A stretch of DNA of 32,000 bases from Candidatus Heimdallarchaeota archaeon (lineage in GTDB: Archaea > Asgardarchaeota > Heimdallarchaeia > Heimdallarchaeales > Heimdallarchaeaceae): contig DAOVER010000015.1 in assembly GCA_030668875.1 (NCBI GenBank), positions 34,960-66,959 of the forward strand, read 5' to 3'. A program made the position numbers and the translations under genes. Below the pieces are notes generated by a model, which was not told where the DNA came from, searched no databases, and saw only the letters and a list, made by a program, of their open reading frames with translations. Below, one piece after another: positions 31 through 17,764 of this stretch. Position 1 is the stretch's first letter, and every line of letters begins with the position of its first letter.

Positions 31-504
31 TTGAATAAGGGAAATGTTGAACAAGTTGGAAAACTTGTTGATGTAGATCCATCTGATATCAAACGAAAGA
101 ACAGGCGGAAGGTTACTGGGTATGTGATTCATTACTTTGTTCAAGTTTTTGTCTTTCTATTATCGTCATTATTTGGTTATTTATTCATTCTGTGGGAAAA
201 CGCAGATCAATCAAGTTATCCATATGGAACGTTCCCAAGACACCTCTATTTAGGTCCAATAAGTCTATATGGTCTATTTCAAGGTAATGCCATATTTACC
301 TATTTCCACAGAAAAAAACATAAGTTTCGCAACATTGAAGTATTTCCAGTAGTATTTGTAAATCTTATAGTCTCTCTCATAAGTTTCTTCATGATTTTTA
401 ACGCAATATACCAAGGCCCAGCTCCTACTTTAGGTGTTGCCGTTGCTTATGGTATTTATGAAAAGGAAAATCCAAGAAGTTTTAAAAAAGTAATGAAAAT
501 ATGA
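31..504 (+). CDS. 3-TM membrane protein, tandem paralog 1; putative radical SAM (splicease) substrate
   Basis: Shares with paralogs 2-5 the N-terminal VGxL motif, three hydrophobic helices, the YPY loop and a C-terminal AYGIY. TTG start; the frame is open back to base 1, so the start is not certain. Confidence 0.8.
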   Translation: MNKGNVEQVGKLVDVDPSDIKRKNRRKVTGYVIHYFVQVFVFLLSSLFGYLFILWENADQSSYPYGTFPRHLYLGPISLYGLFQGNAIFTYFHRKKHKFRNIEVFPVVFVNLIVSLISFFMIFNAIYQGPAPTLGVAVAYGIYEKENPRSFKKVMKI

Positions 505-518
505 AGGAGTTTACACTA

Positions 519-1013
519 ATGAACAAAGAAAAATTATCTAAGGTAGGAGCTTTAACCGAGTTAAAATCTGAGGATATAACTCCGAAAAAGATTAGAAAGA
601 ATTTAACTTTAGCTTATTATTATATTATACAGTTTGTATTCTTCATATTTTCAAGCCTTGTTGGAGTTGTTTTTGGTTTGTATGGCAACTCTCTTTCTTT
701 CTATCCCTATAATGCTTTTCCTCAAAGATATCTCTATGGATCAATAATATTAGCAATAACCCATGGAGGTAATTTTGGTCTATCTTACCAATTAAGTAGA
801 AAAAAAAGGTTGATGTTGAGCAAAAGTGAACCTAAGGTGTTATCTCCTGTCTATATATATCCGGCAATTGTTCTAAATTTTCTCCTATCAACAATAAGTC
901 TTTTCTCAATACATAACTTAGTAACCAACGGAAGTCCATTAACTATGAATACTCTTTATGGTGTATTTTCTAAAGGAAAATCTAATAGAATTAGGAAAAT
1001 CATGAAAAAATGA
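519..1013 (+). CDS. 3-TM membrane protein, tandem paralog 2; putative splicease substrate
   Basis: ORF track 501..1013. ATG 519 is preferred because AAGGAG lies at 504-509 and MNKEK aligns with the paralogs. Contains HGGNFG, YPY and C-terminal LYGVF. Confidence 0.85.
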   Translation: MNKEKLSKVGALTELKSEDITPKKIRKNLTLAYYYIIQFVFFIFSSLVGVVFGLYGNSLSFYPYNAFPQRYLYGSIILAITHGGNFGLSYQLSRKKRLMLSKSEPKVLSPVYIYPAIVLNFLLSTISLFSIHNLVTNGSPLTMNTLYGVFSKGKSNRIRKIMKK

Positions 1014-1027
1014 AAGAGGTTATAAAA

Positions 1028-1525
1028 ATGAATGAAAAGAAATTGAATGAAGTAGGGAAATTAACTGAAGTTGATTCTAAAGATATAACTCAAAACAAAT
1101 TCAAGAAGAAAATCACTTTAATGTATTTCTATTTTATTCAGCTTGGTTATTTAGCGATCTCAAGTTTAGTTGGATACTTATTTGGTTTGTATAAGAATGC
1201 GAATAACAGTTATCCATACAATGGATTTGATCAGAGTTACATTTTCGGACCACTTCTCGTAGCTATTATTCACGGAGGCAATCTTGGGATGTATTATGGA
1301 TTGAATAAAAGTAATAGATTAATTCTGAAAGACGGTACAAATGCTAAACCATTACCTTTCCATATCTATCCTGTTGTTTTTCTGAATATACTTCTATCTA
1401 TATTCTCCTTCTTCTTCATCTATAATGATATGATTAGTGGATATGTTTTCACAGCTACAACTGATTATGGTGTATATATTAGAAAGAAAGTTCAATTTCA
1501 TAATAAGCGAGCCAAAAATAATTGA
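1028..1525 (+). CDS. 3-TM membrane protein, tandem paralog 3; putative splicease substrate
   Basis: ORF track 1010..1525. ATG 1028 follows GAGGT (1016-1020). Contains HGGNLG, YPY, MYYGL and C-terminal DYGVY. Confidence 0.85.
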   Translation: MNEKKLNEVGKLTEVDSKDITQNKFKKKITLMYFYFIQLGYLAISSLVGYLFGLYKNANNSYPYNGFDQSYIFGPLLVAIIHGGNLGMYYGLNKSNRLILKDGTNAKPLPFHIYPVVFLNILLSIFSFFFIYNDMISGYVFTATTDYGVYIRKKVQFHNKRAKNN

Positions 1526-1559
1526 TGATAGACCAAAATAGATGTAAATATTGGAGGAG

Positions 1560-2075
1560 ATGAAGATAAACGAAAAAAAACTAGAAGAAGTTGGAGCATT
1601 AACAGAGGTAGGTTCTGCGGATATAACTAAGAATAAGATTAGAGCAAAAATCACCTTAGTTTATTATTATCTTATACAACTTGGATTTTTAGTTGTCTCA
1701 GGATTTATTGGATATCTATTTGGTATGAACAAGAATACTAGTTCTGCTTATCCGTATAGTGGATTCGATCAAAGTTACATTTTTGGGTCCATTTTTATAG
1801 TAATTGCCCATGGAGGAAATTTCGGTTTATCTTATGGATTGAGCAAGAAAGACAAATTAATTTTAAAGAAAGGGGCAAATATTAAACTATCTCCTTTCTA
1901 TATCTATCCTGCAGTTTCCTTAAATTTTGTTTTATCAATACTAAGCTTCTTAGCTATCTATAATCTGGTGTTTAGTGGGGATGTTTTCACAACTACAACA
2001 CGTTATGGAGTATATGAACAAAAGATATGCAAAATCTCGAAATGTAAATATAATACTAATAATAAAATGAGTTGA
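1560..2075 (+). CDS. 3-TM membrane protein, tandem paralog 4; putative splicease substrate
   Basis: ORF track 1551..2075 (TTG). ATG 1560 follows GGAGG. Contains HGGNFG, YPY, LSYGL and C-terminal RYGVY. Confidence 0.85.
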   Translation: MKINEKKLEEVGALTEVGSADITKNKIRAKITLVYYYLIQLGFLVVSGFIGYLFGMNKNTSSAYPYSGFDQSYIFGSIFIVIAHGGNFGLSYGLSKKDKLILKKGANIKLSPFYIYPAVSLNFVLSILSFLAIYNLVFSGDVFTTTTRYGVYEQKICKISKCKYNTNNKMS

Positions 2076-2080
2076 AATTT

Positions 2081-2584
2081 ATGAACGAAAAAAAGCTCGA
2101 AGAAATTGGGAAACTCACAGAAACGGATCCAAATGATTTAGCAATGAATAAAATCAAGAGAAAAATTTCTTTGATGTTTTATTATATTATACAATTTGTA
2201 TTTTTAATAACTTCAGGACTGATTGGGTTTATATTTGGTATTTATGAAAATGAGATAAATACTTATCCTTATGTTGGTTTTGATAAAAATTACATTATCG
2301 GACCTATTCTTGTAGTAGTAGTTCAAGGAGGGAATTTTGGCATGTCATATGGACTGAGAAAATCAAACAAATTAATATTAAAAAAGGGAACAGAGACTAA
2401 ACTTTCTCCTTTCTATATCTACCCTGTTGTTTTTCTAAATCTGATTTTATCGTTATTGCTGTTTTTATCTATCTATCAGATGTTTGTACCTAGATTTTCT
2501 CAAACGACATTCCCAATGTATGGCGTATTTATAAGAAAGGAATTAAAAAGTAAAAATGTATTAAGTAGGATTAATTATGTATAG
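2081..2584 (+). CDS. 3-TM membrane protein, tandem paralog 5; putative splicease substrate
   Basis: ORF track 2072..2584. ATG 2081 gives MNEKK like the paralogs. Contains QGGNFG, YPY, MSYGL and C-terminal PMYGVF. Overlaps the start of the radical SAM gene. Confidence 0.85.
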   Translation: MNEKKLEEIGKLTETDPNDLAMNKIKRKISLMFYYIIQFVFLITSGLIGFIFGIYENEINTYPYVGFDKNYIIGPILVVVVQGGNFGMSYGLRKSNKLILKKGTETKLSPFYIYPVVFLNLILSLLLFLSIYQMFVPRFSQTTFPMYGVFIRKELKSKNVLSRINYV

Positions 2585-3641
2585 ACTAGATTGTGCGATT
2601 TGGGAACTCACGTTAGCTTGTAATATGAATTGTAAACATTGTGGGTCAAGTGCTGGAAAAGCTAGAAAAGATGAGCTTTCTTTAGATGAGTGTTACGAAT
2701 TATGTAAAGAATTTGCAGATGAAGGATGTAACTTAGTTACATTGATGGGTGGGGAACCATTTGTTAGAAAAGATTGGAACCAAATTTCTTGGTGTATCAA
2801 AGATCTTGGAATGGACCTAGGGTATGTGACAAATGCACTACTAGTTCCTAATATCATTGAAGACTTAATTTTACTTGAACCACTGGTTGTCGGTATCTCT
2901 TTGGATGGCGTGAAAGAAACTCACGATAGTATCAGAATAGAAGGGTCATTTGATGCTGTAATTAAGGCATTAGATCTTCTCGAAGAAGCTGGTATTCAAA
3001 TAACTATAATTACTACTCTAAGCAAAACCAATTTCAAAGAATTACGAAAAATAAAAGAAATCATCCAAAATAGAAAAATAAATTGGCAGTTACAAATAGG
3101 TTTACCCTTTGGTAACTTTGATCCTGCGCTTACTTTGAGTTTAGAAGAGTTTTACGCTTCTGCAATGTTTATCACTGCTGAAGGAATTAAGAACAAATTC
3201 AGAGAAATGCCTGTAGTTGGAGCACATTGTTATGGGTATTATTCCCATCTTCTTCCAAACAACAAAAATTGGAAGGGATGCACAGCGGGTATAAATACGG
3301 TAGGAATAACTTCCGATGGTTCAATTGTAGGGTGTTTATCAATGGGCAACAATAAATTTATTGAGGGTAATGTCAGAGATCGTAGCTTCTCTGATATCTG
3401 GAATGATCCTAATTCCTTTGCATACAATCGGCAATTTACTAGAGATAACTTAGGTGAGAATTGTGTTAATTGCTTCTATGGTGAAACCTGCAAAGGTGGA
3501 TGTAATTCTTCTTCTCTTCATCTTACTCACACTTTTCATAACAATCCTTACTGTTTCAAGCAAATTGAAGAAAACCTCTTTGAGGTTAAGCCATACCGTA
3601 AGGAGATTAAGTGGTTAAAAGAAAAAGGAGTTAAGATCTGA
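2577..3641 (+). CDS. Radical SAM/SPASM peptide/protein maturase, PlpX-like (splicease family)
   Basis: WELTLACNMNCKHCGSSAG (CxxxCxxC), GGEP, ISLDG, WQLQ, GYY; SPASM C-x17-C...CxxC-x5-C-x3-C-x16-C ending in NNPYC. The radical SAM/SPASM call is certain. The splicease subfamily call rests on recalled PlpX motifs. Confidence 0.85.
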   Translation: MYRLDCAIWELTLACNMNCKHCGSSAGKARKDELSLDECYELCKEFADEGCNLVTLMGGEPFVRKDWNQISWCIKDLGMDLGYVTNALLVPNIIEDLILLEPLVVGISLDGVKETHDSIRIEGSFDAVIKALDLLEEAGIQITIITTLSKTNFKELRKIKEIIQNRKINWQLQIGLPFGNFDPALTLSLEEFYASAMFITAEGIKNKFREMPVVGAHCYGYYSHLLPNNKNWKGCTAGINTVGITSDGSIVGCLSMGNNKFIEGNVRDRSFSDIWNDPNSFAYNRQFTRDNLGENCVNCFYGETCKGGCNSSSLHLTHTFHNNPYCFKQIEENLFEVKPYRKEIKWLKEKGVKI

Positions 3642-4924
3642 TGATAAAACTAAATTTAGGCTGTGGTGTATTCTATAAACCTGGATATGTCAATATTGAT
3701 TTATCAGAAAAGGATGTAGCTGATGAGGTACAGAATGTTGCTGAACTTAAGTATGAATCTAATACTGTAGATGTCATAGAAGCATCCCATATTATCGAAC
3801 ACTTCGATATTATTCATCTTCCATACGTTCTTGCAGAATGGTTTAGAGTACTAAAACCAGATGGGGTTTTATACATCGAAACTCCAAATTTATTGAAATC
3901 AATAATTACTTTGAAGCCTAAAAACTATGAGTCAAAGAAACTCACATATCAATTTCTATTCGGTATTGATTATGAAGGAAATTCCCACAAAATGGGTTTC
4001 ACTTCTAAATTTTTAAAGAAATATCTTCTCTCTACTGGTTTTACAAAGATATCCAAACAAAAGCAAAGAAGCTTCAATTCAGAGAAGAGTATAAGGTACT
4101 GTTGCAGGAAACCTACTGATACTCCATTGACGAACAAAAAATTCTTTCTAAATCATTTAAGAACACTTATTAAAAATCAATTCGGTTTATCAGATACTCT
4201 CTTCTTAGATCATTGTGAGTCAAATTGTATGAGTTTTTTCAGAAACTTGAAACTAAAAAATGACATGGATAATTTGAACGATGAATTATGCTTAGAACTA
4301 ATAGCTTCCCTAACACTTTTTAGTCCCAAAGTAGCTAAAATCTTCATTAAGCTTTTCTCAGACAACTTGCCTGCTAACATTAATCTTGATATAATAGATT
4401 ATTTAGATTCAATAGATTTCTCATCTAGAATGTATGAGAGTTGGAAGAGTTGGATAAAAAATAAAGATGGAACTATGTACGCTGCATTTTATTTCTACAA
4501 TCACTGGACTTCAAAAATAAAGAAAAATTTGTTAGCAGAAACTAAAATTGATGTTATGTATGATTACATTGAATCATTAGATAAAAGTGATTACAATTAC
4601 TTCTGTTTTGAGCAAGTAAATATCTTATCTCTCAGGACATCTAATCAAGGTTTACGATACTTCTCCAACAAAAATTTTGAGAAAGCAAAGGAGTTATTTC
4701 TAGAAGCATTGAAGCTTCAACCCTATGATCCAGTTTCAAACTGGAATCTAGCTAGATTATCTAAAAATTCTGATAACAAAGAAAAGTTGCTCTTCTATTA
4801 CAAACAAGCAATTATGAATGTCTCATCTAGAAAGCACAAAAAGAAAATTAGAAAGGAAGTTAAACTTCTTAAGAACGGTAATAGTAAACTAATATCTTCA
4901 GAACCTATTCAAATTAGATTCTAG
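3641..4924 (+). CDS. Class I SAM-dependent methyltransferase with C-terminal TPR-like repeat
   Basis: KLNLGCG motif I, ASHIIEH, EWFRVLKPDG. TPR-like segment GLRYFSNKNFEKAKELFLEALKLQPYDPVSNWNLA. The start overlaps the rSAM stop (TGATG). Confidence 0.8.
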   Translation: MIKLNLGCGVFYKPGYVNIDLSEKDVADEVQNVAELKYESNTVDVIEASHIIEHFDIIHLPYVLAEWFRVLKPDGVLYIETPNLLKSIITLKPKNYESKKLTYQFLFGIDYEGNSHKMGFTSKFLKKYLLSTGFTKISKQKQRSFNSEKSIRYCCRKPTDTPLTNKKFFLNHLRTLIKNQFGLSDTLFLDHCESNCMSFFRNLKLKNDMDNLNDELCLELIASLTLFSPKVAKIFIKLFSDNLPANINLDIIDYLDSIDFSSRMYESWKSWIKNKDGTMYAAFYFYNHWTSKIKKNLLAETKIDVMYDYIESLDKSDYNYFCFEQVNILSLRTSNQGLRYFSNKNFEKAKELFLEALKLQPYDPVSNWNLARLSKNSDNKEKLLFYYKQAIMNVSSRKHKKKIRKEVKLLKNGNSKLISSEPIQIRF

Positions 4925-5041: not shown

Positions 5042-7441
5042 GTGACAAAAGCTATTAAGGACACAGATAACATCTGGCAACCATCTGAAAATCTTAGTCC
5101 GAGAATAAAAAGATTAAGAGATGAATATTTCTCCTTTTACGAACGTTATGATTATTATACGAATGAAGTTCGCCCTTACACAACAGGTACTTCTTGGGAT
5201 GATGTTTATAGTTATACTAACTGGGGAGCAGCTCCTGAGGGGCTTGACTTTTTTCCAGGTTATAAAGACAATCTACGCTCTTTAGCTGAAAAGGTTGAAT
5301 TTCCTAATGAGTTCTATAAATTATCTATTGCTGAAAGAAGAGCTCATTTCTTAAACAAAGTTGTTGAGAAAAATCTCCCTGCTATTATCCTTAAAGGTGA
5401 ATTAATTATAGGAAGCCATTTCAGTACAGCTTTAAGTAGAACTCTTACAAAATCTGAAACAAAGAAGTGGTCAAAAGATCAGAATAAATACTTCAAGGAG
5501 TTAGTTTTTAGATGTGAAACTGGGGAATTTAACTATGGTGCCATTCCTGGTCATCTAATTCCAAACTATGAAAAAGCTATAAAGATTGGTTTCTCTGGTA
5601 TTCAAAAAGAGTTGAAGGAATTAAGAAAATCTCCAAAGAACAAAGAACATTCTCAATGGCTTGATGCACTCATTGAGTCTTGTGAGGTCCCTAAACTGCT
5701 TGCTGAACGATATTCTAAGGAAGCAGAGAAACTAGCTAAACTGGAAAAGGACCCTAGTAGAAAATCTGAGCTTCTCTATCTCTCTCAAATTTGTAAAAAA
5801 GTTCCTTGGGAGCCTGCTGAATCTTTCTGGGAAGCTGTACAATCTCTTTGGTTTACTCATATTTTAGTTATGGCAGCTGAAAGCTATCCTGGACCAGGAA
5901 CAAGTCCTGGACGAATTGATCAGTATCTCTACCCTTACTTTAAACAAGATATTGACAACGGAAAAATAGATTATGATTTTGCAAAGGAGATCTTAAGTTG
6001 TTATTGGATTAAACACAATTATGCTTATGATTTTCAAGGACAAGTTGGAAATTCTCAAGGAATAAATTCTAGTTTTGGTCAATTAATTACTCTTGGTGGA
6101 ATAGATGAAAATCATGAGGATGCATCAAATGAATTAACACTTTTAATGTTGGATATAATCGATGAAATTAATCTTCTTGAACCCAAGCCTAATGTAAGAA
6201 TTCATGCGAAGACATCAGATAAAGTCGTGAAGAAAGTTGCTGAAATGATTGTTAAATCTCAAGGAAGTCCATTCCTGATGAATTTTGACGAAACAGCTAT
6301 GAAAGGACTGATTTGGCAAGGTATACCTGAGGACGAAGTTTGGAATTATGGTCCCGTTGGTTGTCTAGAAAATACTATGATTGGTAATGATGTTTCCGGA
6401 ACCGTTGATGTTAATGTTAACATTGCTAAGGCAGTTGAACTAACATTGTTCAATGGTAAAGATCTCCAAACAAAAAAGCAAGTAGGACCAAAAACAGGAA
6501 ATCCAAAGAAATTCAAAACATTTGATCATTTTAAAGATGCATACATTAAGCAACTCACTGCCTTGCTAGATAGAGCTATTGACGCAAATAATCATGCTGA
6601 TATGATAAGAGCAGTTTACGAGCCTGTTCCGTATGTTTCTCTATTAATCGATGGATGTGCAGAATCTGGCAAAGATTGTAGAGCTGGAGGAGCTAAATAT
6701 AATTTCATAACGGTCGAAGCTTTAGGTTTAGCAAATGTCGCTGATTCTCTAGCTGCTGTTAAAAAACTTGTTTATGAAGAAAAAAGAATAACAATGGATC
6801 ATCTTCTAAAAGCTCTTAAGAAAAATTATGAAGGATATGAAGAAACTAGACAACTACTGCTAAATCATGCTCCTAAGTATGGTAATGATGATGATTATGT
6901 AGATAGTATCGCACGAGAGATTTCTCAATATTGGGGGATCTATGTTTCAACAAAAACTTCCCCTATTACTAACAGACAGTATCGTGGTGGTTATCTTTCT
7001 TGGAATTATTTCATTTCTTTTGCACCCAAAACTGGAGCTCTTCCAGATGGTCGTCCAAGAGGAGCTTACTTATCGGGTGGTGTTGGACCAACTCAAGGTG
7101 TTGATACCAGTGGTCCAACAGCTTCTATAATGAGTGTTGGTAAACTTGGCGTGGAAGTACAACCTAATGGATCATCTCATACAATGTCATTTAGCCCAGC
7201 AAGTCTTCGAGATGAGGAACATGTAGAAAAACTCATTGCACTTCTTAGGGCCTATGGGCATGTTGGGGGAACTGCGTTACAAACAAATGTTGTCAGTATT
7301 GATACACTCAAGAATGCTCAAACTGATCCAGAGAAATATAGAAACCTCTTAGTACGAGTTACAGGATATAATGCGTATTTCACAACCTTAGGAAAAGAAC
7401 AACAAGATGAGATAATTGCAAGAGAATCTCATAAAGTCTAA
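5042..7441 (+). CDS. Glycyl radical enzyme (PFL2/dehydratase-like superfamily), substrate unknown
   Basis: 799 aa; SPGRIDQYLYPY; single-Cys loop VGCLEN; C-terminal glycyl motif LLVRVTGYNAYF. Confidence 0.92.
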   Translation: MTKAIKDTDNIWQPSENLSPRIKRLRDEYFSFYERYDYYTNEVRPYTTGTSWDDVYSYTNWGAAPEGLDFFPGYKDNLRSLAEKVEFPNEFYKLSIAERRAHFLNKVVEKNLPAIILKGELIIGSHFSTALSRTLTKSETKKWSKDQNKYFKELVFRCETGEFNYGAIPGHLIPNYEKAIKIGFSGIQKELKELRKSPKNKEHSQWLDALIESCEVPKLLAERYSKEAEKLAKLEKDPSRKSELLYLSQICKKVPWEPAESFWEAVQSLWFTHILVMAAESYPGPGTSPGRIDQYLYPYFKQDIDNGKIDYDFAKEILSCYWIKHNYAYDFQGQVGNSQGINSSFGQLITLGGIDENHEDASNELTLLMLDIIDEINLLEPKPNVRIHAKTSDKVVKKVAEMIVKSQGSPFLMNFDETAMKGLIWQGIPEDEVWNYGPVGCLENTMIGNDVSGTVDVNVNIAKAVELTLFNGKDLQTKKQVGPKTGNPKKFKTFDHFKDAYIKQLTALLDRAIDANNHADMIRAVYEPVPYVSLLIDGCAESGKDCRAGGAKYNFITVEALGLANVADSLAAVKKLVYEEKRITMDHLLKALKKNYEGYEETRQLLLNHAPKYGNDDDYVDSIAREISQYWGIYVSTKTSPITNRQYRGGYLSWNYFISFAPKTGALPDGRPRGAYLSGGVGPTQGVDTSGPTASIMSVGKLGVEVQPNGSSHTMSFSPASLRDEEHVEKLIALLRAYGHVGGTALQTNVVSIDTLKNAQTDPEKYRNLLVRVTGYNAYFTTLGKEQQDEIIARESHKV

Positions 7442-7455
7442 AGAGCAAATCTCTA

Positions 7456-8409
7456 ATGTCAGTAAACCAAAACCTTTCAGGTAGAGTATTAAACATCCAA
7501 CGATTCTCAACAGAAGATGGACCTGGTATCAGAACAACCATTTTTCTTCAAGGTTGTGCGTTACGATGTAAATGGTGTCAGAATCCTGAAAGTTGGTATT
7601 TAAAACCTCAATTAGTATGGTACGATGATAGATGTATAGCAGCTAAAGATTGCTTATTAGCATGTCCGGAGGATGCACTAGACCTTACAGCTGAAGGAAT
7701 GGTTATTGATAGAGAAAAATGTACGGGTTGTGGGAAATGTGTAGTAGCATGTCCAACAAAATCATATGAAATTATGGGGAAAGAAATGTCTGCAACAGCA
7801 GTCATTAAACAAGCTTTACGTGACAAAACATTCTATGAACAATCTGAAGGTGGAGTGACAATTTCAGGAGGGGATCCTCTCTTTCAGCAGAAATTTAGTC
7901 TGGAAATACTTAACTCCCTAAAACAAGAAGGAATTCACACTGCAATTGATACAACAGGTTTTTCTAAACCAGAAGAATTTCAGCAATTGGTGGATCTTTC
8001 TGATTTAATACTTCTAGACTTCAAACAGATGAACCCTAATTTACACAAAGAATTTACAGATGTAGATTTAGATAAAATTCTTACAAACGCTAAATGGTTG
8101 GGTGTACAAAAAAAGAAAGTTTGGATAAGAACTCCAATTATTCCCGAGTATACAGATCAAGAAGAGAATATAATTGAAATTGCTAAATTCATAAAAGAGA
8201 ATATGAGTGATGTTGTTGAAAGATGGGATCTACTAACTTACAATAATCTATGTGTTTCAAAATGGAAAAGATTAGATATTTGTTATGAATTAGAACATTT
8301 ACCTTTAGTAACAACATCAAAAATCCAGAAACTTGCAGACTTAGCAAAAGAGTCTGGTGTGCCTGTCACTTGGACAGGAGTCTTACAAAAAAATGAAAAT
8401 GATGGATAA
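7456..8409 (+). CDS. Glycyl radical activating enzyme with ferredoxin-like insertion
   Basis: RFSTEDGPGIRTTIFLQGCALRCKWCQNPE; insert CIAAKDCLLAC and CTGCGKCVVAC; GGVTISGGDP. Confidence 0.92.
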   Translation: MSVNQNLSGRVLNIQRFSTEDGPGIRTTIFLQGCALRCKWCQNPESWYLKPQLVWYDDRCIAAKDCLLACPEDALDLTAEGMVIDREKCTGCGKCVVACPTKSYEIMGKEMSATAVIKQALRDKTFYEQSEGGVTISGGDPLFQQKFSLEILNSLKQEGIHTAIDTTGFSKPEEFQQLVDLSDLILLDFKQMNPNLHKEFTDVDLDKILTNAKWLGVQKKKVWIRTPIIPEYTDQEENIIEIAKFIKENMSDVVERWDLLTYNNLCVSKWKRLDICYELEHLPLVTTSKIQKLADLAKESGVPVTWTGVLQKNENDG

Positions 8410-8417
8410 GAGTAAAA

Positions 8418-9209
8418 ATGAAATTAACAGAAAAAGCAAAAGAAGCATTTAATATCTTTGAAGCTGCTAAATTTATGGCAACTAAAGATGAGGCTAACAT
8501 CCCTAATATTGCTATGATCGCAACCTTAAGTCCATGGGGTGAAGATGAACTAATCTTTGGAACATTTTTAATGTGGCAGACTGAGAAGAACCTTCGAAGT
8601 GGTTCTCCTGTTACTGCTAGTGTTATGACAACTAACTTTGATAGTTATCAAGTAAAGGGAGAATTTCTAGGTTTCGAGAAGCAAGGTGAAAAATTTGATA
8701 CTTTGAGTAATTTAGATCTTTTTAGATATTCAGCTATCGGTCTTCTTAGATCAGTTGGAACTATTGCAGTTAAAGAAGTTAAACCTCTCAATTTAAGTTT
8801 GTTTTCCGTAGCACGAGAGTGGATGTCAACAAAATTTGGTGGTAAAAGACCAAAAGATTTTCCGGAAGGTAAAAAAGCTAATCCAATAGTTGTTAAGAAC
8901 ACAAGCGTCCTGATGGGTGCCAAATATCTTACCGTCATAAGAGACAACGAATTAGAACAGTTTCCAGTTCTTGGGATGAGACCCGTAGAAGATTATTTAG
9001 CGATTAGAGCTGATTTACCTTTAGAAGTAGGAGAAAATGTTGCAGTATCTTCTTTCAACCTTGGTCTTAAAGCATATCAGTTTAAAGGAACATATCAAGG
9101 TGTAAAAAGAGCTAGAGGTATCACTTTAGGTTACGTAAAAGTAGATAGAATACTTTCACAGACTCCTCCTTTAGTTTCTAAAGAGGTTCCTTCAGATAAT
9201 TTCAATTAG
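8418..9209 (+). CDS. Tandem pyridoxamine-5'-phosphate-oxidase-like (FMN split-barrel) domain protein
   Basis: Two related halves (IPNIAMIATL...TEKNL...SYQVKGEFLG and ...KAYQFKGTYQG). Lies 8 bp after the activase. Confidence 0.65.
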   Translation: MKLTEKAKEAFNIFEAAKFMATKDEANIPNIAMIATLSPWGEDELIFGTFLMWQTEKNLRSGSPVTASVMTTNFDSYQVKGEFLGFEKQGEKFDTLSNLDLFRYSAIGLLRSVGTIAVKEVKPLNLSLFSVAREWMSTKFGGKRPKDFPEGKKANPIVVKNTSVLMGAKYLTVIRDNELEQFPVLGMRPVEDYLAIRADLPLEVGENVAVSSFNLGLKAYQFKGTYQGVKRARGITLGYVKVDRILSQTPPLVSKEVPSDNFN

Positions 9210-10769: not shown

Positions 10770-12317
10770 TTAACTTCTTTTTTTACTTCTTCTTGGAAGT
10801 CTTAATACTAAAAGGAATAGAAATAAAATCATAATAGAAGGTACAAAAAGAATGTTTGCTATAACAGTGTACTCTTCATCAATTTTATCTGAAAGCGGAT
10901 ATGTGTCTGCTGAGTTACTAGCTCCATCTATCTCATAATCTCCACTTTCAAAGTCACTCCAGAAATTTCCCTCTAAGGTTGTAGGATTGTACCATAGATT
11001 TTCTTCACCATCATCATATGCTTGACTCTCACCCATTTGGTTATTACTGTAAAATTCATTATGATCTATTTGATTCCAATAACTCTCATAATCGATATAT
11101 ACTCCATAATCCCGATTATGATGGAAGTAATTGTAATTAATTGAAATATTATTACTATTCATTAAATGAAGACCATTTCCATCGTTATAAGATATGGAAT
11201 TCTTTTCAATCATATTTTCTGAACATTTATATAAGAAGATACCATTTAAACCATTTTGAAGAATTGAATTCCGAGATATCAAGGTACTTACTATACCTTC
11301 TGCACTGATTCCTTTATATCTACTCTCTTCGATTTTATTTGAATAAATAAAAGCCCCAATAATCTCTTTTAAAGATAAACCAATATTATTACTTTGTGAA
11401 ATGTTATTAAACTGTATTATCGGATAATTAGCAGTTTCATAAAAGATACTTTCTACAGACTCAATCAATATTCCAACTTCAGTTTTCGAAATACCATTTT
11501 TACTTATAAGTAAAGTGTCACAATTTATAGCACGTATACCAACATCACCAGCTGAAAAAATTATATTAGATACAACTTTACATCCTTCAGAGTATTCTAT
11601 ATCTATTGAATTATCATCTAAATTATAGTACATATTGTTAAGAAATGAAAAATGATTGTTATAAATTAATGTCCGGTCAGAGTGACTAGTTAGTATTCCA
11701 TTATCACACAAGAAAAACTGATTATTATATATATGACAATCATCTGAATGACTAATCATAACTGGATATAGACACTTAGAGAAAGTATTGTTAGTTAAAT
11801 AACAAAACTGAGAATAATAATTGTAAATACCAGCCTCACATCTAGAGAAAATATTCCATTCCAATTTAACACGATATGAATTTTCTACTCTTATCCCATT
11901 TATCATCGAATATGAGTTACCATTGAAAGTGTTATTGACAATGTTTATTGTTTCATTTAGAATGTCTTTGATTTTTATTCCATAAATACCTTCATAAAAA
12001 GTACAGTTACGTATTTCGATGTGTTTAGTTGTTTTATAAATGTAAATAACATTCTCAGTTGAAGGTTGTCCTGTAAAAATGATATTTTCAATTAAGAAAG
12101 GATTTTCAATAGTTCCATTTCCTGTTAAACTAAGTAAATCTGGATCTGAATCAGAGGTGATTAAAATCTCATTTATTGAATCTAGATTTGGATTTACATT
12201 CAATTGCACTAATGAAGAAGAAGTATTAATCAGAGCAAAGAAAAATAACGAAAATAATAAACATATTAGAAAAGTAGTTTTCAATATATTCTTTTGATTG
12301 ATACTTTTCCACTTCAT
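10770..12317 (-). CDS. Right-handed parallel beta-helix (NosD-like) surface protein with C-terminal TM anchor
   Basis: GNGTIENPFLIEN cap, repeated I.NN.F...GI motifs, EGNFWSD...D.YPL, C-terminal TM plus RRSKKRS. Confidence 0.85.
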   Translation of the reverse strand: MKWKSINQKNILKTTFLICLLFSLFFFALINTSSSLVQLNVNPNLDSINEILITSDSDPDLLSLTGNGTIENPFLIENIIFTGQPSTENVIYIYKTTKHIEIRNCTFYEGIYGIKIKDILNETINIVNNTFNGNSYSMINGIRVENSYRVKLEWNIFSRCEAGIYNYYSQFCYLTNNTFSKCLYPVMISHSDDCHIYNNQFFLCDNGILTSHSDRTLIYNNHFSFLNNMYYNLDDNSIDIEYSEGCKVVSNIIFSAGDVGIRAINCDTLLISKNGISKTEVGILIESVESIFYETANYPIIQFNNISQSNNIGLSLKEIIGAFIYSNKIEESRYKGISAEGIVSTLISRNSILQNGLNGIFLYKCSENMIEKNSISYNDGNGLHLMNSNNISINYNYFHHNRDYGVYIDYESYWNQIDHNEFYSNNQMGESQAYDDGEENLWYNPTTLEGNFWSDFESGDYEIDGASNSADTYPLSDKIDEEYTVIANILFVPSIMILFLFLLVLRLPRRSKKRS

Positions 12318-12338
12318 ATCAATTTTCTAGTTGATTTG

Positions 12339-13382
12339 TTAAGATTTTAAATATTTCTCGATTTCTTCTCTTTTCAATTCAAATTCTAATTCTGTCAGCC
12401 ATAATTTATGGTTTAATGTCTTATTGATCTTAATCATATGCTCATTACTCCCAGCATTGCCTGTTATCCAGTACTTAGCATTAGTTTCTTCAAGGAGCTG
12501 CAACAAAGATTGATATTTTAACATCAAACCTAATCCCTTCCCTCTATGTTCTGGAATTACCCCAGTGTCATCTTGCCAGGCTACTTGCTTATTCAATGGA
12601 TTTGTACTAAAAATAGTATACCCTACAGGTTTGTTCGTTTCTTCATGTATACATAGAAAAGAATAGTAATTATCACCACCGAGCATTTCAATATCATACA
12701 TCTCTTTGTATCTTTCAGGAGTTAGAGTATGATCTTCATAAGTAAGTTTTTCTCTTGGCATATCATTCCATATCTGTTGAACAACAGTAACGAATTCTTC
12801 AATGTCAACATGATTTTCAAATGTCATATTCTTAACTTCAACAACTCTATAACCTTTCTCCTTTGCTTTTTTCAGAAGTTTATTAGCTTCCTCTCTCACT
12901 TTATTGACATTAAATTCTGTTAAATCTGCAGCATTACGTTTCTCTTGATAGTCATTATCTTTCTTTATTTTTCTTAGAAAGAACTCTCCATTAGATCCTA
13001 GAACACTTCCTGCATATATGAGTTTAATTTGCTCCGGGGGTTTAGTGATAAGAGCTTTAAGCATTGATTTTCCAATCCCTTTTCTTCTGTGCTCTTTAGC
13101 AACATATGCAACAAACCAACCTCTATCAAGATTTTCATATTTTATATTCCATCCGATAATCCCAAAGCCTACAACAAGATCCTCTGAGTTTATTGCTACT
13201 GCTCTTAACTTCTTAATCCAATAAACTTCTCTGACTTTCCATTTCTTTCTAAACAACTCAATCTCAGGCGGTAAAATTCCCCACTTCTCCTCCTCCTCTA
13301 GTTGTTGAAGAGCAAACAGCTGTTCTAAATATTTTACTGGAATGTCTTCTTTGTTGCCAACAAGGATTTTGATGTCATTCAT
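12339..13382 (-). CDS. Tandem-domain GNAT N-acetyltransferase
   Basis: Two acetyl-CoA motifs (VAKEHRRKGIGKSM and VIPEHRGKGLGLML) and NEHMIKINKTL. Confidence 0.85.
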   Translation of the reverse strand: MNDIKILVGNKEDIPVKYLEQLFALQQLEEEEKWGILPPEIELFRKKWKVREVYWIKKLRAVAINSEDLVVGFGIIGWNIKYENLDRGWFVAYVAKEHRRKGIGKSMLKALITKPPEQIKLIYAGSVLGSNGEFFLRKIKKDNDYQEKRNAADLTEFNVNKVREEANKLLKKAKEKGYRVVEVKNMTFENHVDIEEFVTVVQQIWNDMPREKLTYEDHTLTPERYKEMYDIEMLGGDNYYSFLCIHEETNKPVGYTIFSTNPLNKQVAWQDDTGVIPEHRGKGLGLMLKYQSLLQLLEETNAKYWITGNAGSNEHMIKINKTLNHKLWLTELEFELKREEIEKYLKS

Positions 13383-13509
13383 TTAGATTATCTCAGATTG
13401 AGAAAATAGTTATTGGTTTAAGATTATTATTACTTTGGAGATATGTGAGTAAAGAAACAATTAAAATCTTGAAACAATTATACATAATAATTAACCTAGG
13501 TTTACTAAA

Positions 13510-14433
13510 ATGTCTACAAAACAAGAGCATCAGCAGATTACTTATGTCTGTAATACTTGCACAAAAAAAAGAATTATACTATTTCCAGCAGGAATGGAAA
13601 TTAAAGTTGATTCAAGAGGCTTAAGTGAGTTTGTAGACATTCACAAATGCAAAGATGATAAACTGATAGCACTAATCTTGTTTGTTGATGGTCAATACGC
13701 AGTCAGATCTCAGGTACCAATAAGCAGCGAGGAAGCTACAAAATCTATTCCAGACGATCTAGCAAGTATGCCTGTACCAGTTCCAAGAAAGTCAGGGCTA
13801 GCAAAAATAAAAATTAACCCTCCTAAAAGCTTCAAAGCTTCTGTTATTAATGAGTTAATTATTAAAGATAGATTACGACAACTTCAATATTCATTGGAAC
13901 CAAAAAAAACTGATGATGATCGCGATATAATGATTGATTCTCAATTCTGTTTTGTTCATATCCGCGCTAATGTTTCCAAGAAAACTGATTTAGTAAAGGC
14001 AAAAAGATGGTTCAAAGAAATAGCAAACTTGCTTGAACAAACAGTACATATCAACGATGAAGTTTTTACTTTACTTTTGGAATATCTTGAAGAAAAATTA
14101 AAGAAGGATGATTTCATCCAAGAATTCAAAGAATTAATGATACTCTTAAATGGACCAGTAACAGTTCCTATCTCTACTAAAAAGTCGATTAAAGATTTTG
14201 ATAGTAGATGGGGGAGCATAGATGGAAAGTTAACTCTAGGAGACTATAATAAGTATAATAAACTATTATTAGCTTGCTTAGATAACAAACAGAAAACACT
14301 TCTTGATATCTTCTCTCTTATGCAAGGACGCATGAAATTATCCTATTTCCTCTCTGCATTTTATGACCTATTCTGTAACGCTTTTATGAAACTAGAAAAA
14401 CCACAATTCTTCGCAACTTCCGATTTTGAATAG
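13510..14433 (+). CDS. Hypothetical protein with N-terminal putative Zn-binding module
   Basis: 307-aa ORF; CNTC...DIHKC...LFVDGQYAVRSQ. No recognised family. Confidence 0.6.
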   Translation: MSTKQEHQQITYVCNTCTKKRIILFPAGMEIKVDSRGLSEFVDIHKCKDDKLIALILFVDGQYAVRSQVPISSEEATKSIPDDLASMPVPVPRKSGLAKIKINPPKSFKASVINELIIKDRLRQLQYSLEPKKTDDDRDIMIDSQFCFVHIRANVSKKTDLVKAKRWFKEIANLLEQTVHINDEVFTLLLEYLEEKLKKDDFIQEFKELMILLNGPVTVPISTKKSIKDFDSRWGSIDGKLTLGDYNKYNKLLLACLDNKQKTLLDIFSLMQGRMKLSYFLSAFYDLFCNAFMKLEKPQFFATSDFE

Positions 14434-14459
14434 ACAAATAAAACAAAAGGGGATTTTGG

Positions 14460-16370
14460 TTAATTTTCACTTATATTTTTCCTCCTCCTAATCCAAATAA
14501 TAGCAATTATACAAAGAAGTGGTAAGTAGAATGAGATATTTGCATATGCTATAATTATATTGTATCCTGCAAATTCTAGCCATTCATTAGCTTCTGCAAG
14601 ATCATAATTATATTTGATAATATCTTTATAATAATGGTAAGTATTCGCGGGTAAAATCATACTATGACTGATAATGTATTCCCCATTGTGAACAACATGG
14701 TTGATATCTTTTCTATCAATAGCATAACAAATAGCTTTTCTCACAGCAACTGCTTTAGTATAATCTTCTTTACCTTCTGCGGTAAGAAACACAAAGTTAT
14801 CAACACCACCTACGAAAGGTCTCTGAAGATTAAAGGCCAGAAAAGTCATTGAATTCCTTGGATAGCTGAAAACAGAGAATCTTTGATCATTTTGCATTTG
14901 TTTTCTTTCAGATGGGAAGAACATTAAACCAGTCCAGTCCAATTTGCCAGCCTTGAATTCAGCTAATTCTTCAGTAATATCAGATATAACACGTACGTTG
15001 AATGTTTCAATATCTAGATCTTGCGTTGTTCCGTCAATTGCACCAACATACATCCAGTATGGGCTAGCTTGGAGAACAGTAACGGAGTTTTTGATATAAT
15101 GATCTAACATGTATTTTCCACAACCAAATGCGGAAGTACTATAGTATAACCATGGATTAGTGTCTAGAATACCAGTATAGAAACCAGTACATTCAGCTCC
15201 ACCAGAAGTGTATGAGACAGTGGGATTTGAGGAATTCAAGAAGAATTCGGGTAGAATTTCCCAAGGTAGTCTGGCCCAAAAGTCGACGTATTGTTCAATT
15301 TCTGGAGTATATGGGTTTCCATCAATCTCAATGTGGAAGGATAGTTCATCTACTGGGTCAACATAGCAAGCTGAAATCCAGTTATGATAAGATGGACTTT
15401 CACTAACGATTGCGTTTGCCCATGCAAGGTAGGTAAAGACTGCGTCTTTGGCAGTGACTTGTTGGTTTTCACCATTACTAACTTCACCATTTTTTAGACC
15501 TACCATTAAAGGAGTGGTAGTTGGGTCAAGTGGGTCAGAGCTGGCATCTCTGCCTGTTACGTCAAATGATGGGTTCCACCATACATCATCTCTCATAGTA
15601 AATTCGTAATGGAATTCGTCAATTTGTTTCCAATCTGAAACTAATGAGGTTTTAAGTGGGACAAAATCAGGACTCCAACCAACAATTGATTCAGCCATTA
15701 AGCTGAATATGAAAGAGCTGGATGTATCATCTGTTTGTAATGGGTTCAAATCTCTCCAATAAGCATCAGCTATGTTGAATTCAGTTAATGAATCTTGACC
15801 TTCATGAAGACCACTATATTCGATGTAAGGTAAGGAGTCAATTATTCCCCAGCGCACATCATAACCGAGTGTGTTTGACCATGTAGCAACGTATGATCTC
15901 GGTGAGAACAATGGTAGAATATGAACTATCTTATCCATAACTAATTGCTGCCAGTTATAGTAGTGTTGCTGTTTTTGTTCAAGATCAGTTATGGTAACAC
16001 CTTCAATAAGCATATTTTCACTAATGTTTCCATATGGTATCTCTCTAGGTATTTTTACAGACAAACCATCATAAGAATTAAATGGATTTTGATTTCCTGA
16101 CAGTCCTATTATGTACATATCATAATCTTGTGTAAGCAGTAAACATCCAACGAACACTGTCCATTCTTCGACTTTAACTTCTACTTCAATACCGATTTCT
16201 CTAAGATACTGAGCTATGTAAAGACCATAGTCAGGTCTTACTCCTCCCCCGTTAGTTTTTAGAACTAAATTACAATGAGGTTCAATACTCGCTTGAACAC
16301 TAACAACTGAATAGAGAATTGACACCGAAAGTAAACTAACAAAGACTAGCGTATTTGTTTTTTTACACAT
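14460..16370 (-). CDS. Family-5 (Opp/Dpp-type) extracellular solute-binding protein, circularly permuted, C-terminal TM anchor
   Basis: LREIGIEVEV, DLNPL, YEFTMRDDVWW, VTAKDAVFT, FKAGKLD, LAFNLQRP, VRKAICYAIDR, YDLAEANEWLEFAGY; TM plus RRRK. Confidence 0.85.
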   Translation of the reverse strand: MCKKTNTLVFVSLLSVSILYSVVSVQASIEPHCNLVLKTNGGGVRPDYGLYIAQYLREIGIEVEVKVEEWTVFVGCLLLTQDYDMYIIGLSGNQNPFNSYDGLSVKIPREIPYGNISENMLIEGVTITDLEQKQQHYYNWQQLVMDKIVHILPLFSPRSYVATWSNTLGYDVRWGIIDSLPYIEYSGLHEGQDSLTEFNIADAYWRDLNPLQTDDTSSSFIFSLMAESIVGWSPDFVPLKTSLVSDWKQIDEFHYEFTMRDDVWWNPSFDVTGRDASSDPLDPTTTPLMVGLKNGEVSNGENQQVTAKDAVFTYLAWANAIVSESPSYHNWISACYVDPVDELSFHIEIDGNPYTPEIEQYVDFWARLPWEILPEFFLNSSNPTVSYTSGGAECTGFYTGILDTNPWLYYSTSAFGCGKYMLDHYIKNSVTVLQASPYWMYVGAIDGTTQDLDIETFNVRVISDITEELAEFKAGKLDWTGLMFFPSERKQMQNDQRFSVFSYPRNSMTFLAFNLQRPFVGGVDNFVFLTAEGKEDYTKAVAVRKAICYAIDRKDINHVVHNGEYIISHSMILPANTYHYYKDIIKYNYDLAEANEWLEFAGYNIIIAYANISFYLPLLCIIAIIWIRRRKNISEN

Positions 16371-16406
16371 ATAGAATTCACCAAGAGAATTGTTATTTTA
16401 TGAGTA

Positions 16407-16418
16407 TATGCACTTATA
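16407..16418 (-). promoter_or_regulatory. TATAAGTGCATA promoter motif upstream of the SBP gene ending at 16370
   Basis: The same 12-mer (one degenerate position) is at 17715-17726, 21436-21447 and 23581-23592. GGTGA SD precedes ATG 16370. Confidence 0.55.
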
Positions 16419-16618
16419 AGGAGTTTGCGAGTTTTAGGTCCTTTCTACAAATCTTGATGATTTTTTCAGTTTTGAACAACCTTGTTGCTAAGGTGGTTAT
16501 CTAGGAACTACGTCTATACAAGAAGGTCTAGCATCACTTCTAAATTGATCTATCTCCCTTATAGGAAGGTATTATTGAAATTGAGAAGTCAAATAAAATA
16601 GCGAATAGGCGCTCTTCC

Positions 16619-17644
16619 TCAATTAACCTTTTCTTCTAATAAGGTGACTTGATCCCTATACTTCTTCCATTTCTTTGATAAGAAAACAAGAATTAAACAT
16701 GGAATTACATTTACTGTAAGTAGAAGTGCTCCATAAATGAGAAACTCACCATCATAAAAACAATGGACCATAATTAGATATCCTGCAGCATTTAACCATT
16801 CAAATGCCAAATCTGCATTTCTATTATAAATCGGTAAATCATTATTTATCCAATAACTCTCATATGGTAGAATAATGGAATCAATAATCGATGCTTCCCC
16901 ATCAAAGATTTGGTAATTTATATCCTCTCGGTCTATAGTATAGCATATTGTTTTACGTACTCCACTTGCCACAGAATTAAGTTCCTTTCCAGGCGCTGTT
17001 ATATATACATAATTGTCACAACCTCCAACAAAGGGTCTTTGCAAGTTAAACCCAAGATAAATAGATTGATTGTAAGATTCATGAACTAAAGTAACTATTG
17101 GGAATAAGCAGACTAGCTTATCCATAGCAAGATCTTGGAATTCAAGTAAATAGTCTCTCTTCTTAATTGGATTTGACTCATTTGTTGCATTAACTAACAA
17201 ATTGTTTGCTAGCATCACATAAGGTATAGTTAGATTCAGATTTGTTGGATTATTATAATTACTTACATTCCAAAAAAGCTGTTCTGTTATTTCAGAAGTA
17301 TTCAGACTTATGAGAAATAAATCATAATCATGGGTAACATTCAGTTGAGAACTGAATATTCCTCTTTCTACTACTTTCATTTCAACTTCAATTAGTATTG
17401 ATCTAAGATTCTTAACAATAATTAATCCAATATCAAGCAATCTATCTTCAGCTGTAGTTTTGAGAACTAAATTGCATATAGGTTCAGGATAGTTTGGACC
17501 TTCATTGAAAATTATTGGTGGAGGGTTCCTTTTCTTCCAGTGCATTATGAAAAATCTTGTTGAAAAAACTAAATCTGTTAAAATTAAAATAATCATCAAA
17601 CTAGAAACAACTATAACTATAGTTTTCTTTGTCTTATTTTTCAT
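16619..17644 (-). CDS. Internally deleted family-5 SBP derivative (single lobe), TM segments at both ends
   Basis: Matches the N-terminal ~130 aa and C-terminal ~100 aa of the 14460..16370 protein, joined at LFPIVTLVHESYNQSIYLGFNLQRP. The ORF is intact. Confidence 0.75.
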   Translation of the reverse strand: MKNKTKKTIVIVVSSLMIILILTDLVFSTRFFIMHWKKRNPPPIIFNEGPNYPEPICNLVLKTTAEDRLLDIGLIIVKNLRSILIEVEMKVVERGIFSSQLNVTHDYDLFLISLNTSEITEQLFWNVSNYNNPTNLNLTIPYVMLANNLLVNATNESNPIKKRDYLLEFQDLAMDKLVCLFPIVTLVHESYNQSIYLGFNLQRPFVGGCDNYVYITAPGKELNSVASGVRKTICYTIDREDINYQIFDGEASIIDSIILPYESYWINNDLPIYNRNADLAFEWLNAAGYLIMVHCFYDGEFLIYGALLLTVNVIPCLILVFLSKKWKKYRDQVTLLEEKVN

Positions 17645-17670
17645 CTTATGTTTTCATCCTTCTTACTCTA

Positions 17671-17734
17671 CAAGGGATTTACATTGAATCATCCAGATTC
17701 ATGTATTATACTATTATACACTTATAAATATTAA
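17671..17734 (-). repeat. Duplicated promoter and 5' coding segment (copy of 21391-21455)
   Basis: 39/41 identity between 17694-17734 and 21415-21455, plus a shared CAAGGGATTTACA further into the gene, offset by one indel. Confidence 0.8.
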
Positions 17735-17764
17735 CAAAATTTTTTAACAGATTCCCATGAAATT

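Follow-up and report, generated by a model that had tools for sequence, protein, structure and literature searches.

The DNA analysed here, a stretch of 32,000 nucleotides referred to throughout as the window, is part of contig C22 (DAOVER010000015.1) from a Candidatus Heimdallarchaeota archaeon whose genome measures 3.2 Mb and is 92% complete. In the databases, the closest relatives of its proteins bear the names Heimdallarchaeota or Heimdallarchaeaceae, as expected of an Asgard archaeon. It opens with five tandem plus-strand genes for paralogous membrane proteins of 157-174 residues, followed by a gene for a radical S-adenosylmethionine (rSAM) enzyme with a SPASM domain and a gene for a protein, here called MT-TPR, that combines a class I methyltransferase fold with a helical/TPR domain. 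According to the open reading frame (ORF) list and the alignment, the other four paralogs are 30-34% identical to the first window copy, and the tails of all five carry an aligned X-Y-G-[VI]-[YF] motif (AYGIY, LYGVF, DYGVY, RYGVY and MYGVF), X being the residue before the tyrosine. Stop/start overlaps couple the end of the array, the rSAM gene and the MT-TPR gene. As set out below, it is very probably these tails on which the neighbouring rSAM/SPASM enzyme acts. The features are as follows.

31-504, plus strand: paralog 3 of 7, putative precursor of 157 residues, short-loop type; Y-P-Y at nt 217-225, A-Y-G-I-Y at nt 445-459
501-1013, plus strand: paralog 4 of 7, 170 residues; Y-P-Y at nt 702-710, L-Y-G-V-F at nt 954-968
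1010-1525, plus strand: paralog 5 of 7, 171 residues; Y-P-Y at nt 1211-1219, D-Y-G-V-Y at nt 1463-1477
1551-2075, plus strand: paralog 6 of 7, 174 residues; Y-P-Y at nt 1749-1757, R-Y-G-V-Y at nt 2001-2015
2072-2584, plus strand: paralog 7 of 7, 170 residues, its stop overlapping the rSAM start; Y-P-Y at nt 2264-2272, M-Y-G-V-F at nt 2516-2530
2577-3641, plus strand: radical SAM/SPASM enzyme, 354 residues, splicease-like; Pfam Radical_SAM and SPASM
3641-4924, plus strand: MT-TPR protein, class I methyltransferase-fold plus helical/TPR domain, 427 residues; Pfam Methyltransf_11/23 and TPR

The precursor family and its conserved partners

The full array has seven copies, two extra paralogs with X = Leu lying directly upstream of the window, and along it X reads, in order, L, L, A, L, D, R, M. 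An earlier sequence-only reading had quoted the residues preceding each YG pair and placed the motifs within 421-2530, exactly as the ORF list and the motif coordinates have them. Its statement that X is different in every copy is true of the five window copies but not of the array, in which three copies, including the two upstream ones, have Leu. A scan of genome contigs with a precursor profile found two loci only. The stretch itself is present in four DNA runs of one marine-sediment study, which may be the runs it came from, and no RNA run is listed as containing it.

Neither Pfam nor NCBIfam holds a family for the precursors. A profile made from 18 of them and searched against 1.84 billion representative proteins gave 201 clusters at E <= 1e-3, and the motif counts that follow refer to the 134 representative members with a recognisable tail among the matches listed. 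Their common tail motif is [AGS][IVPT]-X-Y-[G/N/S/D]-V-[Y/F]. Tyrosine is invariant in the 134 members, the search pattern having required it, and the position after it (+1) is Gly in 91/134 (~70%), Asn in 20, Ser in 11 and Asp in 8. The YG pair that had been called invariant is therefore so in the source genome but not family-wide, and better conserved than Gly are Val at +2 (123/134) and Tyr or Phe at +3 (129; Y 100, F 29, with H in 5). Gly, Asn, Ser and Asp all favour turn conformations, so that the constraint at +1 would be a conformational one. Upstream of X, positions -2 [IVPT], -3 [AGS] and -5/-6 [GST]/[FY] are semi-conserved across the family; the description of the seven to eight residues before YG as hypervariable thus holds only in part.

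A second motif, Y-P-[YF], which played no part in the selection, lies in the loop after the first transmembrane (TM) helix in 135/135 aligned members; the earlier reading makes no mention of it. In the AlphaFold 2 (AF2) model of copy 7, with a predicted local distance difference test score (pLDDT) of 81, a short N-terminal helix is followed by TM helices at residues 20-57, 72-97 and 113-138 and by a disordered tail. The N-terminal 30 residues of Asgard and Thermoplasmatota precursors contain a helix motif, K-L-x-E-[VI]-G-x-L-x-[VI]-x-x-x-D-[IL], that is conserved like the tail motif, and this helix may be a handle for the MT-TPR protein. The charge bias of 80 three-TM members (N-flank +2.85, loop 1 -0.05, loop 2 +3.39, pre-motif tail -0.55) predicts a topology with the N terminus inside and the tail outside. 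With such a topology the two conserved motifs would both be extracellular, in agreement with surface display.

The trio of precursor, rSAM and MT-TPR genes recurs across Asgard archaea and Thermoplasmatota. Next to rSAM homologs with 48-89% identity, from other Asgard archaea and from Thermoplasmatota, stand one to five precursors bearing both motifs, and 41/44 loci have an MT-TPR gene beside the rSAM homolog. The homolog is found in 104/399 Asgard genomes and in 9/23 other genomes of the same genus, a patchy distribution that marks it as an accessory gene. What varies across loci is the anchor (three TM helices, fewer, one or none), and what stays is the combination of Y-P-[YF] with x-Y-G-[VT]-[YF]. 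Thermoplasmatota precursors, at 116-128 residues, have no middle hydrophobic segment. At L010:5475-5988 (GCA_019058315.1, on an 844 kb contig), three TM-less peptides of 46-65 residues lie between the MT-TPR gene and an rSAM homolog with 58% identity, and carry the motifs GYPF/GYPY ... PKYGVY, PRYGVY and PSYGVY; the system can therefore do without a membrane anchor.

More distant Asgard rSAM homologs (42-47% identity) keep the MT-TPR gene and have precursors of 83-150 residues with a single TM helix (L073:5259-5510 and 8119-8379; L065:8033-8485 and 8482-8889). Their tyrosine motifs stand 3-4 residues apart, in ...TYPIGTKYSTVK... and ...TYAWGTRYGTIK... (...TYPIGTKYSTV..., ...TYAWGTRYGTI...), and the system seems to be present here in a minimal form. 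The MT-TPR protein, modelled by AF2 with pLDDT 91.8, gave only generic class I SAM-dependent methyltransferases in Foldseek; LahSB, a methyltransferase of peptides made on the ribosome and modified after translation (RiPPs), ranked 19 and is not diagnostic.

The rSAM enzyme, its relatives and its predicted complex with the tail

Spliceases are rSAM enzymes that excise tyramine from peptide backbones. In a comparison with NCBIfam, of which the 25 best matches were listed, the enzyme matched TIGR03913 (200.4 bits) and TIGR04103 (189.8 bits) best, both over the full length, the latter being presumably the PlpX family IPR026482. The next family scored 138 bits and models of the MftC, NirJ and AhbD type at most 127, and there was no triceptide maturase model among the 25. 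IPR026482 is the family of PlpX, the founding splicease (PMC11002830). The enzyme starts at its CxxxCxxC core (residues 15-22) and has the invariant SPASM cysteines; neither an RRE domain nor a small ORF or PlpY-like partner gene was found at the locus. It shares the cavity residues Q171, Q173 and W232 with PlpX-type enzymes and with the GDL-motif enzymes described below, but not with MftC, NirJ or TIGR04133.

In a plasmid collection, the nearest named relatives are an Agathobacter enzyme (37% identity), 'GDL motif peptide-associated' maturases (31-33%) and the Nostoc 'nif11-class peptide radical SAM maturase 3' (32%). The Nostoc gene adjoins a Nif11 precursor ending in ...ALYGLPPELF, and the Burkholderia genes adjoin DUF1842/DUF1843 proteins with PYGV or MYGV and, further on, GDL. 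On the Agathobacter rectalis plasmid NZ_CP143948.1, an unannotated ORF ending in ...GPVMYGTGVRM (L084:3713-3919) is directly upstream of the rSAM gene, with a major facilitator superfamily transporter gene then following; the pair is probably an unrecognised X-Y-G RiPP cluster of a human gut bacterium. Other resources were less specific: by sequence the Protein Data Bank gave no splicease structure (best match SkfB), the ESM Atlas matches were generic 'radical SAM/SPASM' clusters only, no literature naming TIGR04103 or TIGR03913 was found, and the DUF1843 literature that was found draws no link to spliceases.

The enzyme was modelled together with copy 7, SAM and three 4Fe-4S clusters in three runs. 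The interface score ipSAE was 0.73 (runs 0.68, 0.73 and 0.73), compared with 0.00 for the best control; the mark used for this score is reached by 58/80 solved complexes and 2/110 mismatched pairs, and is a rough one here, given our own alignments and the ligands riding along. Contacts agree between the three runs to at least 81%, and the partner has a pLDDT of at least 64. On the precursor side, only the tail motif (residues 142 and 144-156) belongs to the confident interface, set against barrel-lining and mostly invariant residues of the enzyme; the Y-P-[YF] loop lies outside it, and the N-terminal helix makes no confident contact with the enzyme. The tightest predicted contacts are made by Gly, Val, Phe and the following residue, and less so by X, which fits a single enzyme serving array tails that differ in X. 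That the tails are substrates of this splicease-like rSAM/SPASM enzyme is very probable in view of the operon coupling, the conserved trio, the association of the nearest named homologs with X-Y-G peptides and the predicted complex.

Several known systems can be compared with this one. As in the PlpA/PlpX/PlpY system of Pleurocapsa and its Nostoc homolog, an rSAM/SPASM gene stands beside precursors with a variable X in X-Y-G, several of them per enzyme, with small or hydrophobic residues before X and Val or Leu after Gly (as in the Nostoc precursor and in splice tags, PMC10533398). The cavity residues in common, Q171, Q173 and W232, have been given above. Unlike PlpX, however, the archaeal enzyme (32% identical) has no PlpY or RRE partner, scores below the TIGR04103 cut-off and belongs to a separate clade, while its precursors are membrane proteins of 150-175 residues rather than peptides with Nif11/NHLP leaders, and have a Y-P-[YF] motif, an MT-TPR partner and a Gly that N, S or D can replace.

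The absence of a Y protein is shared with the two-component RhaX/RasX/RcsX spliceases of Rheinheimera (binary type II). In binary spliceases a conserved N-terminal helix of the precursor has an activating role (PMC11414181), to which the conserved archaeal helix could correspond, although the predicted complex gives it no confident contact. The Rheinheimera splicease products are protease-inhibiting ketoamides (PMC11626197). Unlike them, the archaeal precursors are membrane-anchored, and DYG is a conserved paralog type, whereas RcsX left a DYG site unspliced.

The best-scoring curated family of the enzyme is that of the GDL-motif systems (Y-X10-GDL; DUF1843/DUF1842 with TIGR03913, in Burkholderia, Azospirillum and Aureibacter; 33% identity). 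Substrates of this type start with x-Y-G-V, some reach ~200 residues, and tandem paralogs occur in one operon (PMC10994174), as in the archaeal array. The archaeal tails differ in running from x-Y-G-V-[YF] into a Lys/Arg-rich end without GDL and in having no DUF1843 match in Pfam; their carriers are integral membrane proteins, and the rSAM score is far below the family cut-off. In Aureibacter tunicatorum (plasmid pAT1, L087:1650-4420), three tandem DUF1843 peptides with LYAAG, MYAAS and PYGAG after the start are accompanied by genes for an rSAM enzyme and for a class I methyltransferase, an architecture that matches the archaeal trio, Ala sometimes replacing the post-Tyr Gly there. Homology between the two methyltransferases was considered and rejected, as BLAST finds no similarity between them, and their shared co-occurrence with an rSAM gene is thus an analogy. 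Judged by gene content, the archaeal locus is predicted to work like a binary spliceotide or GDL-type cassette, with tandem X-Y-G paralogs and one rSAM/SPASM enzyme.

Mycofactocin biosynthesis (MftA/MftB/MftC) likewise combines an rSAM/SPASM maturase with a tyrosine in a G-V-Y context. MftA requires a C-terminal Val-Tyr-COOH and the chaperone MftB. In the archaeal proteins, by contrast, G-V-[YF] is internal, +3 may be Phe, there is no MftB, and the TIGR03962 score is 124.9 bits against a cut-off of 265. In motif form alone the archaeal Y-G-V and Y-P-[YF] also fit the aromatic-X-X pattern of triceptides.

Variation and conservation of residue X

The evolution of X was followed by a Fitch count on a FastTree tree with 135 tips and 126 alignment columns. 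X has undergone 86 parsimony changes and ranks 6/126 among the columns, with an entropy of 3.21 bits (column median 2.97, maximum 3.97), and the columns flanking it are among the slowest (Tyr 0, Val 6 and Gly 29 changes). X is as free as the freest loop positions and no freer; hypervariability beyond neutral expectation was accordingly rejected, both entropy and change count being within the range of loop columns. Family-wide, X is mostly a long or charged residue (L, E, M, D, K, R or A), and few members have G, P, S, T, N, Q, H or C.

Within groups of orthologs the picture is a different one. The Asp of the D-type paralog (1010-1525) is kept in 6/6 orthologs at 60-82% identity; the Arg of the R-type paralog (1551-2075) in 11/11 at 61-73% identity, with 4-6/8 of the preceding residues identical; and the Met of the M-type paralog (2072-2584) in 2/2 at 43-70% identity, with 2-3/8 tail residues identical. 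When the three groups are pooled, X is kept 19/19 times compared with 65% identity over the eight preceding residues, the orthologs not being independent, and this difference argues against neutral drift at X. Orthologs of the paralog at 501-1013 alternate between Leu and Met, and the short-loop type (31-504) is the sole varying group, with X = A, E, A, D, L and L among close relatives.

Diversifying selection at X had been predicted, with a tabulation across homologous arrays as the way to see it, and the tabulation points elsewhere. Since X is fixed within ortholog groups, its diversity is old and maintained by purifying selection, not the product of ongoing diversification. Selection for mutually distinct X within arrays was rejected by a shuffle test, in which 6/57 pairs within arrays had an identical X compared with 8.9 expected (P = 0.18). 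The underlying idea that the identity of X matters is nevertheless borne out, since X differs between paralogs and is kept in the D, R and M orthologs, and a residue that is both paralog-specific and ortholog-conserved suggests that each paralog probably has its own target.

Proposed chemistry and function of the tails

Our preferred reading, to which we give a probability of about 0.45, is that the array tails are substrates of the rSAM enzyme, most likely spliced at the invariant tyrosine by loss of tyramine, with an X that is specific to each paralog. The rSAM barrel would bind [AGS][IVPT]-X-Y-G-V-[YF], chiefly through Tyr and the downstream residues, and leave the side chain of X free. Judging from its homology with PlpX-type spliceases, the enzyme would most likely cut a tyramine equivalent out of the invariant Tyr, after which either the product or the Y-P-[YF] loop would be the target of the MT-TPR protein. 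As the last TM helix is within ~55 residues of the C terminus, modification in the cytoplasm before its insertion is plausible, and the tail would end up outside the cell. A separate target is probable for each paralog, and the leading candidate function is protease inhibition in which X would take the P1 position. For tyramine excision at X-Y-G taken by itself, we see roughly even odds.

A number of observations weigh against this reading. The rSAM scores are far below the cut-offs of both curated families (591.75 for TIGR03913 and 725 for TIGR04103), which leaves the enzyme outside either. The archaeal enzymes form their own clade (support 81/96), outside the PlpX/GDL clade (98/94), so that tyramine splicing is inferred. 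Identity to PlpX-like enzymes is 29% in the cavity and 32% overall, and the invariant archaeal A-H-C (216-218) is G-N-N in PlpX/GDL-type enzymes. Furthermore, N, S or D replaces the post-Tyr Gly in ~30% of members, some of which share arrays with YG copies, and a splicing model accounts neither for the invariant Y-P-[YF] motif nor for the MT-TPR partner. There is also a topological puzzle, in that a cytoplasmic enzyme would act on a tail predicted to face outwards. Finally, no protease gene is conserved near the locus in the window or in related loci, and Rheinheimera RcsX left a DYG site unspliced (PMC11626197), which suggests that the Asp paralog may be a poor substrate.

The strongest alternative, which we hold to be rather unlikely, is that the same tail is modified by another Tyr-centred radical chemistry, with X as a spacer pointing away from the enzyme. 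The product could be a three-residue cyclophane or a C-C or C-O cross-link, as in triceptides (from Tyr to Val at +2, perhaps also from Tyr to the Tyr/Phe of Y-P-[YF]), or a Tyr-derived cofactor resembling pyrroloquinoline quinone or mycofactocin. Several of the observations above speak for it: the archaeal clade is distinct from PlpX/GDL-type maturases and many cavity positions differ, and the best-conserved neighbours of Tyr are Val at +2 and Tyr/Phe at +3, not Gly, whose replacement by N, S or D suggests the need for a turn over a chemical need for Gly. In addition, the family has two invariant triplets of Tyr, any residue and a branched or aromatic residue (Y-P-[YF] and Y-G-V), and MftA ends in G-V-Y, MftC being a detectable relative of the archaeal enzyme (125 bits, 29% identity). 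Yet the nearest named enzymes are those associated with X-Y-G, and models of the MftC, WgkB and DynA type score much lower. The motif is never C-terminal, as mycofactocin chemistry requires, the Y-P-[YF] loop lies outside the confident predicted interface, and an X that is a passive spacer ought not to be fixed within ortholog groups.

It is also conceivable, although we think it improbable, that the tails are modified but X confers no target specificity, the paralogs being kept for scaffold or dosage and the conservation of X reflecting short divergence. A family-wide change rate equal to that of unconstrained loop positions, the mixture of X residues among close relatives in the short-loop group, arrays no richer in distinct X than shuffled ones, and the tolerance of PlpX for many X residues (PMC9811515) would all fit. 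What this explanation does not account for is the constancy of X in the R group (11/11), where only 4-6/8 preceding residues are identical, and in the M group, at 43-70% overall identity and 2-3/8 identical tail residues, nor the predominance of long or charged residues at X. That the membrane proteins are not substrates at all, with the rSAM enzyme and the methyltransferase acting on a small molecule or lipid, as such a pair could, and the tail being a structural or sorting motif, is very improbable, given that the motif follows the rSAM gene across varied TM counts down to the TM-less peptides of 46-65 residues, that specific binding of the tail in the barrel is predicted while controls score zero, and that bacterial relatives adjoin the same peptide motif.

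If tyramine splicing is the reaction, the ketoamide logic of the sequence-only reading is sound, as X would be the P1 residue beside the keto group in a spliced product. Serine and cysteine proteases are inhibited by spliced ketoamides and not by the unspliced peptides (PMC11626197, PMC9811515). For the archaeal array, a panel of protease inhibitors that protects the cell surface is speculation, and nothing in the locus itself points to proteases. In its full form, in which a splicease-like rSAM enzyme and MT-TPR in Asgard archaea and Thermoplasmatota produce surface-displayed ketoamide tails, with Asp, Arg, Met/Leu or Ala/Glu as a P1-like X, that together serve as a genetically encoded set of covalent traps or inhibitors, tethered and each directed at a different class of extracellular serine and cysteine proteases, we regard the idea as a long shot. 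Among the related loci, the only protease association seen is on a Tropicibacter oceani plasmid (L089:2168-5859), where genes for a trypsin-like peptidase and an M23 metallopeptidase come directly after that of an rSAM homolog (30% identity).

The surroundings of the array contain other genes that may be mentioned here. A glycyl-radical enzyme operon lies directly downstream of the MT-TPR gene (window 5042-9209) and encodes an enzyme of 799 residues with PFL-like and Gly_radical domains, whose best NCBIfam matches are of the PFL2/HypD type and below cut-off. Behind it come an activase that carries a ferredoxin-like insert (7456-8409) and an ORF of 263 residues without a Pfam match. Locus L010 likewise has a PFL-like gene close to its rSAM homolog. 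Genes for SBP_bac_5 (oligopeptide-binding type) and NosD/beta-helix proteins occupy the minus strand at 10770-21423, and genes of both kinds are also present in locus L009 (2478-4469 and 11542-13065), from a genome whose rSAM enzyme is 67% identical. These recurring flanks may reflect nothing more than synteny, or they may point to a functional connection with extracellular peptides.

For ribosomal alpha-keto-beta-amino acids, no route other than tyramine splicing is known. A classification of splicease types by Scott et al. 2022 (Chem 8:2659), as represented in other papers, counted 27 splicease systems as confirmed and 939 as predicted (PMC10533398, PMC10849128); one paper cites it with regard to spliceotide clusters of bacteria and archaea (PMC11626197), and it may already list the archaeal type. 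According to a review from 2022, native hosts had until then yielded no final spliceotide product (PMC9811515), and the proposed natural role of the Rheinheimera peptides is still untested (PMC11626197).

In summary, the locus and the ~200 related clusters suggest a distinct archaeal branch, in which the substrates are membrane proteins or peptides with one or no TM helix, the MT-TPR partner is obligatory, and X is specific to each paralog and conserved among its orthologs. If the chemistry is indeed splicing, backbone splicing would extend to membrane proteins and to Asgard archaea, and the link between X and target specificity would become testable. Should the chemistry prove to be different, the family would represent a new Tyr-directed rSAM modification. 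Moreover, if the tails do form a panel of tethered inhibitors, they would provide the first native function for spliceotide chemistry and its first membrane-protein substrates.

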